A stretch of 64,000 nt of DNA. Source: Escherichia coli. GTDB taxonomy: Bacteria > Pseudomonadota > Gammaproteobacteria > Enterobacterales > Enterobacteriaceae. A program made the translations under genes and the position numbers. Numbering within the stretch: the stretch's first letter is position 1; every line of letters begins with the position of its first letter. Positions 30,665 to 32,419 of the stretch are shown here, piece after piece. The stretch is from assembly GCF_050920415.1 (NCBI RefSeq), contig NZ_CP169309.1; one strand, given 5' to 3'. Below the pieces are notes generated by a model. The model was not told where the DNA came from and made no database searches. It was given only the letters and a program-made list of their open reading frames with translations.

Positions 30665-32419
30665 ATGAAAATGACTTTGCCGTTTAAACCCCATGTGCTG
30701 GCGCTAATTTGCAGTGCCGGGCTTTGTGCCGCCTCTGCAGGGCTATATATAAAAAGCCGCACAGTGGAAGCGCCTGTGGAAGCGCAATCGACACAACTGG
30801 CTGCGCCTGACATCACCGCAGTTACGCTTCCTGCAACGGTTTCCGCACCGCCCGTAACGCCCGCCGTCGTTAAAACCGCATTCAGCACTGCGCAAATAGA
30901 TCAATGGGTTGCACCTGTCGCGCTGTACCCCGACTCTTTGCTTTCACAAGTGTTAATGGCATCAACCTATCCGGCAAACGTTGCGCAAGCAGTGCAATGG
31001 TCGCACGATAATCCACTTAAACAAGGCGATGCTGCTATTCAGGCGGTATCTGACCAGCCGTGGGACGCCAGCGTCAAATCGCTGGTGGCTTTTCCGCAAT
31101 TGATGGCGTTAATGGGCGAAAACCCGCAATGGGTGCAAAACCTGGGCGATGCTTTTCTGGCGCAGCCGCAGGACGTGATGGACTCGGTACAGCGGTTGCG
31201 GCAACTGGCGCAACAAACCGGCTCGCTGAAGTCATCAACCGAACAGAAAGTTATTACCACAACGAAGAAAGCTATACCGGTAAAACAGACAGTCACGGCT
31301 CCCGTCATACCATCCAATACCGTTACAACTGCCAACCCTGTCATTACAGAGCCTGCAACAACCGTCATTTCCATTGAGCCCGCCAACCCTGATGTGGTCT
31401 ATATTCCCAACTACAACCCAACCGTGGTTTACGGGAACTGGGCCAATACTGCGTATCCGCCGGTTTATCTGCCACCACCAGCCGGAGAACCGTTTGTTGA
31501 CAGCTTTGTGCGCGGATTCGGCTATAGCATGGGCGTTGCTACTACATACGCACTATTCAGCAGCATCGACTGGGATGACGACGATCATGACCATCATCAT
31601 GACGATGATGATTATCACCACCACGATGGCGGTCATCGTGACGGTAATGGCTGGCAACACAACGGCGACAACATCAATATCAACGTCAACAATTTCAACC
31701 GTATCACCGGTGAGCATCTTACTGATAAGAATATGGCATGGCGGCACAATCCAAACTACCGTAATGGTGTGCCCTATCATGATCAGGATATGGCAAAGCG
31801 GTTTCACCAAACCGATGTCAACGGCGGCATGAGCGCCACGCAGTTACCTGCTCCAACACGCGACAGCCAGCGTCAGGCGGCAGCAAGTCAGTTTCAGCAA
31901 CGAACACACGCCACACCCGTCATTACGCGAGATACCCAACGTCAGGCAGCGGCACAGCGGTTTAATGAAGCTGAACACTATGGGAGCTATGACGACTTCC
32001 GCGACTTCAGCCGTCGCCAACCACTGACCCAGCAACAAAAGGACGCCGCTCGTCAGCGTTATCAGTCGGCCTCTCCTGAGCAGCGCCAGGCAGTCCGCGA
32101 GAGAATGCAGACTAACCCACAGAACCAGCAGCGAAGAGAGGCAGCGCGTGAGCGTATTCAGTCTGCCTCGCCTGAGCAGCGCCAGGTATTTAAGGAAAAA
32201 GTACAGCAGCGCCCACAGAACCAACAGCAACGTGATAACGCCCGCCAGCGTGTTCAATCAGCATCACCTGAACAACGTCAGGTTTTTCGGGAGAAAGTTC
32301 AGGAGAGCCGCCCACAACGTCTAAACGACAGTAACCATACTGCCAGGCTGAATAACGAGCAACGGTCAGCAGTACGCGAACGGCTGTCTGAGCGTGGAGC
32401 AAGAAGACTGGAAAGGTAA
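30665..32419 (+). CDS. yacH: Secreted protein of unknown function with His/Asp-rich segment and C-terminal tandem repeats
   Basis: ORF 584 aa, signal peptide MKMTLPFKPHVLALICSAGLCAASA; low-complexity DWDDDDHDHHHDDDDYHHHDGGHRDG; three ~28-aa repeats QSASPEQRQ(A/V)... Confidence 0.8.
   Translation: MKMTLPFKPHVLALICSAGLCAASAGLYIKSRTVEAPVEAQSTQLAAPDITAVTLPATVSAPPVTPAVVKTAFSTAQIDQWVAPVALYPDSLLSQVLMASTYPANVAQAVQWSHDNPLKQGDAAIQAVSDQPWDASVKSLVAFPQLMALMGENPQWVQNLGDAFLAQPQDVMDSVQRLRQLAQQTGSLKSSTEQKVITTTKKAIPVKQTVTAPVIPSNTVTTANPVITEPATTVISIEPANPDVVYIPNYNPTVVYGNWANTAYPPVYLPPPAGEPFVDSFVRGFGYSMGVATTYALFSSIDWDDDDHDHHHDDDDYHHHDGGHRDGNGWQHNGDNININVNNFNRITGEHLTDKNMAWRHNPNYRNGVPYHDQDMAKRFHQTDVNGGMSATQLPAPTRDSQRQAAASQFQQRTHATPVITRDTQRQAAAQRFNEAEHYGSYDDFRDFSRRQPLTQQQKDAARQRYQSASPEQRQAVRERMQTNPQNQQRREAARERIQSASPEQRQVFKEKVQQRPQNQQQRDNARQRVQSASPEQRQVFREKVQESRPQRLNDSNHTARLNNEQRSAVRERLSERGARRLER

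Follow-up and report, generated by a model that had tools for sequence, protein, structure and literature searches.

An open reading frame (ORF) at positions 30665–32419 (+) of the window, the 64,000-nucleotide (nt) stretch of Escherichia coli DNA from contig NZ_CP169309.1 analysed here, is the known, annotated gene yacH of the uncharacterised family DUF3300. Its product carries a His/Asp-rich cluster and a set of tandem repeats in its C-terminal region, and the DUF2950 gene that usually accompanies DUF3300 genes has been lost from Escherichia. We propose that yacH encodes a Sec-exported envelope protein in which both features are lineage-specific elaborations, the His/Asp loop binding cations and the repeats extending a C-terminal arm after loss of the partner; taken as a whole, this reading has, in our judgement, roughly even chances of being right. 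The topology of export, the binding of metals or other cations and the functional role of the arm are the parts of it that we infer.

The identity of the gene is secure. The ORF list gives a single frame of 584 amino acids (aa) plus a stop codon, flanked by acnB and lpdA, both on the opposite strand, and its product is 100% identical to the protein annotated as YacH or "DUF3300 domain-containing protein" (WP_000784402.1) of E. coli MFDS1022581 (NZ_CP169399.1), which confirms the name proposed in an earlier note on this DNA. A Pfam search matched PF11737 (DUF3300) at aa 75–332 with E=1.4e-78 and a score of 263.9, covering model positions 2–227 of 227, and the RefSeq annotation agrees with this assignment. 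In a 91-sequence alignment, the invariant or near-invariant columns of the family map to A83, A86, L87, D90, W133, D134, G161, P248, W303 and R366 of the query, and the core motifs APxALYPDxLLxQxLMAxTYP, WDxSVKSL, VYVPxYNPxVVYG and WxHNPxHR are all present. The family is large and mostly proteobacterial, comprising 9,547 representative clusters (50% identity clusters) at E<=1e-3.

Searches of PDB, Foldseek, Pfam and NCBIfam matched no solved structure or characterised family resembling YacH. The NCBIfam scan of the whole protein returned no family even at E<=1, Foldseek against AFDB50 recovered other DUF3300 proteins only, Rfam gave nothing relevant on the yacH locus, and the sole PDB sequence match (E=3.4) fell on the FLAG/His tag carried by a recombinant G protein-coupled receptor, so the His/Asp tract is strikingly tag-like. 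The earlier note had described a protein of uncharacterised function, and this description stands, since the domain search yielded only DUF3300, itself of uncharacterised function, and no well-characterised family with a defined one. The cluster and the repeats singled out in that note are real, and the cautious reading given there holds for the most part; the DUF3300 domain of about 230 aa lying between the Pro/Thr/Val spacer and the cluster had been overlooked. The architecture of the gene, as delineated by the domain match, the family alignment and an AlphaFold2 model built from 91 diverse homologues (mean predicted local distance difference test score, pLDDT, 71), is as follows.

30665–32419 (+): yacH coding sequence, from the ORF list, identical to the coding sequence of WP_000784402.1; ratio of nonsynonymous to synonymous substitution rates (dN/dS) about 0.11 overall against four other alleles.
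30665–30754 (+): predicted N-terminal export signal (aa 1–30) with Lys2, Lys8 and hydrophobic aa 11–29; candidate signal peptide, with a possible cleavage site between ASA and G, or uncleaved signal anchor.
30755–30886 (+): linker rich in Ala, Pro, Thr and Val (aa 31–74), predicted disordered (pLDDT 52–68) and fast-evolving (dN/dS 0.22–0.54, the maximum in the gene).
30887–31660 (+): DUF3300 match (aa 75–332; PF11737, E=1.4e-78), comprising a helical subdomain (aa 75–184), a Thr/Val/Pro linker (aa 191–232) and a Pro-rich beta core (aa 233–301).
31568–31645 (+): His/Asp cluster DWDDDDHDHHHDDDDYHHHDGGHRDG (aa 302–327, exact match), a predicted disordered acidic loop encoded by a GAY/CAY simple-sequence tract.
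31661–31699 (+): conserved Asn-rich strand NGDNININVNNFN (aa 333–345), which closes the His/Asp loop; family consensus ...W(G)xxxVxINVNRxNN, also found in distant representatives.
31739–31783 (+): conserved motif WRHNPNYRNGVPYHD (aa 359–373); consensus WxHNPxHRxGVPYRD, with R366 nearly invariant and pLDDT 92–94 at aa 361–380.
31850–31987 (+): pair of 23-aa units, APTRDSQRQAAASQFQQRTHATP and VITRDTQRQAAAQRFNEAEHYGS (aa 396–441), containing a 39-nt direct repeat of 72% identity at 31856–31894 and 31925–31963.
32039–32134 (+): 32-aa repeat unit 1, KDAARQRYQSASPEQRQAVRERMQTNPQNQQR (aa 459–490), equivalent to K-12 unit 1 (94% nt identity); net charge +4, predicted helix-turn-helix.
32135–32230 (+): 32-aa repeat unit 2, REAARERIQSASPEQRQVFKEKVQQRPQNQQQ (aa 491–522), equivalent to K-12 unit 3 (92% nt identity); net charge +3.
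32231–32326 (+): 32-aa repeat unit 3, RDNARQRVQSASPEQRQVFREKVQESRPQRLN (aa 523–554), equivalent to K-12 unit 4 (99% nt identity); net charge +4.
32327–32416 (+): basic C-terminal tail (aa 555–584), a degenerate half-unit ending ...NNEQRSAVRERLSERGARRLER, which aligns with the ...REFRRR end of other Enterobacteriaceae.

In the AlphaFold2 model, confidence is high over aa 75–200 and 230–270 (pLDDT >90), the subdomain spanning aa 75–184 is all-helical, and both the NGDNININVNNFN strand and the WRHNPNYRNGVPYHD motif are predicted to pack back onto the DUF3300 core. At the N-terminus, the hydrophobic segment of aa 11–29 has a Kyte-Doolittle mean of 2.04 and is modelled within a helix of aa 9–30. 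Inspection of distant DUF3300 sequences revealed canonical signal peptides or lipoboxes, and signal peptides have been noted in the family previously (PMC4653623). Together these observations make an export signal probable, in line with the signal peptide suggested in the earlier note, and would suit a cleaved peptide and a signal anchor alike. A two-pass or bitopic inner-membrane protein was also considered, in which the Gly-rich stretch of aa 283–300 (GFGYSMGVATTYALFSSI) would span the membrane, so that the loop carrying the His/Asp tract and the Arg-rich arm would both be cytoplasmic. This stretch is glycine-zipper-like, the positive-inside rule would suit an Arg-rich C-terminus, and some database entries bear the label "membrane protein"; however, the mean hydropathy of GFGYSMGVATTYALFSSI is only 0.4–0.8 compared with that of the N-terminal segment, the model has no helix there but strand and coil lying against the core, family members possess cleavable signal peptides or lipoboxes without a second hydrophobic segment, and an acidic tract of charge -11 right at the membrane exit would be unusual. 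We therefore regard this topology as very improbable and retain the exported form.

Across Enterobacterales, a disordered loop of the DUF3300 core has expanded into the His/Asp tract. The 26 residues of DWDDDDHDHHHDDDDYHHHDGGHRDG include 12 Asp, 8 His and 1 Arg, giving a net charge of -11, and are modelled with pLDDT <50 between confidently predicted flanks. Since the Pfam match at aa 75–332 covers the whole model, the tract lies inside the DUF3300 domain as an insertion, not directly after the spacer as previously described. The residue string reported in the earlier note is exact at aa 302–327, but the coordinates given for it, 31569–31650, are not: the start is one base out of frame (translating as TGMTTIM...) and the end is 5 nt late. 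Elsewhere in DUF3300 the same site holds few residues only, the family consensus reading a short W-G-x-x-x-V-x-I-N-V-N-R and distant representatives having DWHH followed by I-N-V-N-R-Y-N. By comparison, expanded tracts of about 25–46 aa, with differing sequences, occupy this one site at 15 of 15 Enterobacterales loci. Within E. coli, at least 14 length or sequence variants of the tract were found among 120 protein clusters, the CFT073 allele carrying 9 extra residues, and the tract DNA contains period-12 and period-21 microrepeats at 31575–31628. We envisage that the loop grew by slippage of codon repeats at a single surface loop, between the near-invariant Trp303 and the Asn-rich strand. In Salmonella Typhimurium, an 8-base-pair (bp) GATCATCA deletion in the His/Asp-coding tract, at Asp284, frameshifts yacH (STM0157) and makes it a pseudogene in the majority of strains sequenced (PMC3391293, PMC10048834).

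Binding of metals or other cations by this loop is plausible by analogy. Known metal-binding segments rich in His and Asp (or Glu) occur as loops, one His-rich in periplasmic ZnuA and one cytoplasmic in RcnA, and as C-terminal tails in SlyD and HypB. The YacH loop has the composition (12 Asp and 8 His in 26 residues) and the predicted disorder (pLDDT <50) of such His-rich segments, and like them it is part of a folded protein and differs in length from one relative to another. It differs from them in that there is no homology, such segments arising independently, and DUF3300 is not known as a metal-handling fold; the resemblance to the ZnuA, RcnA, SlyD and HypB loops and tails, as an analogy, is compositional only. 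As with other His/Asp-rich low-complexity segments, the ligands would most likely be divalent transition metals (Zn/Ni/Cu), bound with low specificity.

The C-terminal region is strongly basic, with a net charge of +16 and 36 Gln over aa 396–584. The two 23-aa units at its beginning (TRDSQRQAAA... and TRDTQRQAAA...) are both conserved across Enterobacteriaceae and predicted to be helical. Downstream of them, the three tandem repeats recognised in the earlier note proved to be three in-register units at nt 32039–32326, with a period of 32 aa instead of the approximately 28 aa stated there. The repetition far exceeds chance, since at offset 32 the identity in the best 32-aa window reaches 24 of 32 residues, compared with 9.6 +/- 0.9 and a maximum of 13 in 200 shuffles of the C-terminal region. 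In pairwise comparison the three units share 53–62% protein identity, 56–72% DNA identity and 31–34% identity at third codon positions; their DNA has diverged too far for Tandem Repeats Finder or a seed-based repeat finder to report the 96-nt units. Such protein identity, maintained despite the divergence of the DNA and of third positions, indicates from the sequences that the units are old duplications kept by selection on the protein. Each unit is predicted to form a helix-turn-helix in which S-P-E-Q starts the second helix. Among the loci examined, QSASPEQRQ units were seen only in Escherichia (E. coli, E. albertii and the fergusonii-like allele of strain AST85, described below), while in the corresponding region Pseudocitrobacter, Kluyvera and others possess short Q/R repeats of their own, unrelated to these. 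We suggest that the 32-aa units are Escherichia-specific tandem duplications which form basic, Gln/Arg-rich helix-cap-helix hairpins, with S-P-E-Q as the helix N-cap, and which together would lengthen a polycationic C-terminal arm serving as an extensible interaction or spacer element.

The SPEQRQ units could also be read as periplasmic chaperone or adaptor modules of the Spy/CpxP/ZraP (LTXXQ) type, a reading that would suit regulation by Cpx. YacH, as predicted, shares with these proteins a periplasmic location, Cpx regulation, helical hairpins and a short cap motif of the [ST]-P-E-Q type. Nevertheless, no LTXXQ or related Pfam family was found at E<=10 with the whole protein or with the C-terminal 189 aa (aa 396–584) alone, NCBIfam gave no match, and the cradle-shaped helical hairpin fold of Spy, CpxP and ZraP was not recognised in YacH. 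This identity, for which the C-terminal 189 aa alone returned no Pfam match of any kind below E 0.08, was dropped as close to refuted.

The number of 32-aa units varies between strains, as the earlier note had anticipated: E. coli alleles carry 3, 4 or 5 units. Four are present in K-12 and AH21 (617 aa), three in the window, CFT073, 1162T7 and isolate 58, and five in one protein cluster, and other alleles have extra duplications of 17 or 45 aa in the repeat region. The three-unit allele of the window consists of K-12 units 1, 3 and 4; its second unit matches K-12 unit 3, leaving K-12 unit 2 unrepresented. The three units of CFT073 are a different set. Since three-unit alleles thus differ in which units are missing, units have been gained or lost more than once, and we propose unequal recombination between units as the process by which copy number would change. 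In 40 evenly spaced genomes out of the 5,425 matching complete genomes, a sample in which only some lengths were checked, approximately half of the genes measured near 1755–1782 nt and half near 1851–1854 nt.

This behaviour resembles that of the protein-coding variable-number tandem repeats of bacterial surface and envelope proteins, in that the number of units is 3, 4 or 5 depending on the strain, units are gained and lost independently, and the frame is always kept in the alleles seen. It differs from that of hypermutable contingency loci, whose units are near-identical, whereas the 96-nt units of yacH share only 55–91% DNA identity. There was no sign of on/off switching in E. coli, all variants seen being in frame. 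A hypermutable, phase-variable locus was ruled out on these grounds: the units are too diverged, and the sole frameshift on record is the 8-bp deletion fixed in Salmonella Typhimurium lineages.

A further candidate, that yacH is unusually divergent within E. coli, was rejected. A 1,755-nt stretch of the window acnB (27713–30310) is at least 99% identical to only one of the 5,425 complete E. coli genomes and matches nearly all others at approximately 95%; the lineage of Escherichia from which the window derives is therefore divergent, at this locus at least, and the strain's own divergence largely explains the low nt identity of its yacH. Separately, E. coli AST85 (NZ_AP043644.1; L091:3501–5360) carries a 619-aa yacH allele with 68% protein identity to the window allele and a repeat period of 34 aa. 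In length and identity it is like the E. fergusonii protein, and it adjoins an lpdA gene whose product is identical to that of other strains; from its sequence it looks like an imported allele.

An alternative explanation for both features is that they are neutral low-complexity spacers, by-products of slippage and unequal crossing-over in disordered regions, which would be tolerated if the DUF3300 core is all that matters or if the gene, as an orphan, is decaying. It would be in keeping with the length polymorphism of tract and repeats, the predicted disorder of the tract, C-terminal regions that are wholly different between genera, the tract frameshift tolerated by Salmonella Typhimurium and the disappearance of the partner gene from Escherichia. 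However, tract and repeats are both under purifying selection (dN/dS 0–0.17) despite saturated synonymous divergence from E. albertii; the repeats account for values of 0.06–0.17 and the tract for 0–0.07, at dS values of up to 1.9, a low dN/dS being a weak test in a two-letter low-complexity tract. Moreover, the protein identity of the units holds at 53–62% while that of their third codon positions falls to 31–34%, the tract has been kept at one site in all Enterobacterales examined, and yacH is intact in more than 99% of the 5,425 E. coli genomes, 5,415 of which contain it at a query coverage of at least 80%. The dN/dS values weaken the neutral explanation, which we consider unlikely.

In most of the family the DUF3300 gene has a partner. 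At 67 of 80 DUF3300 genome loci the next gene downstream, on the same strand, encodes DUF2950, the two usually being separated by -4 to +23 nt, and most of the 13 exceptions are truncated contigs. The co-localisation of DUF3300 and DUF2950 in Proteobacteria has been noted before without a proposed function (Seshadri et al. 2015, PMC4653623). A search for a third conserved neighbour of the pair found that only overlapping spurious ORFs recurred, so the module consists of two genes. DUF2950 is absent downstream of yacH in the window, in E. coli and in E. albertii, and in the window the gene is followed by a terminator and then by the convergent lpdA. A blastn search with a close DUF2950 gene returned no match in any of 5,426 complete E. 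coli genomes, and no Escherichia appeared among the source-named clusters of the best 120 DUF2950 protein matches. Escherichia YacH is thus an orphan whose usual partner gene has been lost, a point that the earlier note did not register.

The loss extends to the protein itself. A C-terminal motif (FSGNDSRSPSWQ..RG..SR in Enterobacteriaceae), located just before the tail in other genera, is conserved in genomes that have the partner; E. coli has lost it by deletion, and E. albertii retains a degenerate version. The pattern [FL]xG...RG..S was present at 59 of 66 evaluable loci with DUF2950 and at 0 of 5 without it (Fisher p ~6e-5), although the pattern is a regular expression written post hoc, the test is uncorrected for phylogeny and the five partner-less loci represent about four lineages. 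The repeat arm would occupy the place of this partner-associated motif, which we suppose was lost along with DUF2950. As to the C-terminus in general, 53 of 71 complete DUF3300 members (loci L010–L089) end in Arg-Arg, usually after a Gly/Arg-rich stretch, and E. coli YacH ends in ...ARRLER. A metagenomic enterobacterial contig (L090:1019–2410) encodes a 463-aa YacH relative that lacks the DW motif, the His/Asp tract, the Asn-rich strand and a downstream DUF2950; judging by its sequence, it is a second kind of reduced form.

YacH stands within DUF3300 by its full-length domain match, its invariant residues and motifs, its predicted N-terminal export signal and its disordered Arg-rich C-terminal region. 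It differs from other members in that Escherichia has neither the downstream DUF2950 gene nor the C-terminal [FL]xG...RG..S motif. The much expanded His/Asp loop separates Enterobacterales, including Escherichia, from most DUF3300 proteins, and the 32-aa QSASPEQRQ units belong to Escherichia alone.

Several points weigh against the proposed reading of YacH as an exported protein with a cation-binding loop and an extensible arm, among them the limits just given for the motif test and for dN/dS in the tract. By its sequence, the N-terminus may be either a cleaved signal or a membrane anchor. The tract tolerates changes of length and the Salmonella Typhimurium gene is often a pseudogene, so the function of yacH is dispensable in some settings at least. 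AlphaFold2 confidence for the repeat arm is moderate, reaching pLDDT 74–85 in its best-predicted stretch (aa 471–510) and falling below 50 in the third unit and the tail. Finally, the literature searched contained neither metal-binding data nor metal-responsive regulation for yacH or DUF3300.

Published expression and knockout data place YacH in envelope-stress physiology. The gene is CpxR-regulated, its deletion improves survival in protamine, and its mRNA falls with protamine in a partly CpxR-dependent manner, a fall with cecropin A having also been reported (PMC9600279). Additionally, truncation of rob in one strain is accompanied by a sharp fall in the yacH transcript (PMC7537768), and published expression data show induction by ampicillin and by cathelicidin (derivative). 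Apart from such expression and knockout screens and one comparative-genomics remark, the literature searched held no functional study of yacH, DUF3300 or DUF2950. A scan for CpxR-box patterns found 52 compared with 45 expected by chance, none of them convincing upstream of yacH.

These reports bear on a further explanation, according to which YacH is an electrostatic device: the -11 loop would capture cationic antimicrobial peptides, or its 8 His would shift charge at acidic periplasmic pH so as to engage or release the +16 arm, altering permeability or Cpx signalling. The segregation of charge between the loop and aa 396–584 was computed directly, and the improved protamine survival of the deletion, the partly CpxR-dependent fall of yacH mRNA with protamine, the reported fall with cecropin A and the induction by the cathelicidin derivative would all be compatible with it. 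Against this, the protamine phenotype comes from a single study that offers no mechanism, and yacH is regulated in opposite directions by different stimuli; we judge this explanation quite unlikely. A broader conjecture joins this idea to the orphan status of the protein. In this scheme YacH would be the orphaned half of a widespread and uncharacterised two-protein periplasmic DUF3300-DUF2950 module (in the DUF2950 model, an NTF2-like domain is joined to a type IV pilin-like one), re-purposed after the loss of the partner and of the associated C-terminal motif so that the His/Asp loop and the polycationic arm jointly form an electrostatic device responsive to cations, metals or cationic peptides, and the length of the allele (3–5 units, a tract of 21–32 residues) would tune envelope susceptibility between strains. 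We put this forward as a speculation that is decidedly unlikely to hold in full.

The sequences on either side of yacH deserve brief mention. On the downstream side there is one further feature:

32431–32459 (no strand assigned): intrinsic terminator, bidirectional and common to the convergent lpdA (A6-GCGGC-loop-GCCGC-T6), with an RNA folding energy of -19.1 kcal/mol and z = -3.9 against shuffles.

The lpdA stop codon lies approximately 70 nt past that of yacH. A consensus scan for promoters and terminators was uninformative and missed this terminator, which folding later confirmed. On the upstream side, about 230 nt of the acnB–yacH intergenic region adjoining acnB (30311–30540) are invariant among the window, K-12, CFT073 and AST85 and nearly so in E. 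albertii, while the flanking genes show a synonymous divergence of 0.16–0.87. The conservation suggests a strongly constrained acnB leader or regulatory region; Rfam returned no family for it. A perfect palindrome, GGTGATAATCACC, at 30533–30545, about 120 nt upstream of the yacH start, has a core, TGATAATCA, that resembles the Fur-box core; it is conserved in E. coli alleles, with 1–2 changes in E. albertii and AST85.

The novelty of these results is incremental, consisting of the 32-aa period, the recurrent gain and loss of units, the enterobacterial origin of the tract and the orphan status of the Escherichia gene with concomitant loss of the C-terminal motif. They leave current understanding unchanged and will mainly serve to guide the design of constructs. 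yacH is nonetheless one of the E. coli genes whose function has yet to be assigned, collectively the "y-ome", and DUF3300 is a very large exported family of more than 9,500 clusters. The published Cpx, Rob and cationic-peptide hints give handles on it, and so do the naturally occurring alleles, which form a series differing in the number of basic repeats (3, 4 or 5) and in the length of the His/Asp tract. Furthermore, there is an evolutionary contrast between the orphan YacH of Escherichia and the paired DUF3300-DUF2950 operon of Citrobacter, Klebsiella, Enterobacter and most Proteobacteria, and the C-terminal motif is a candidate for the site at which the two partners interact.

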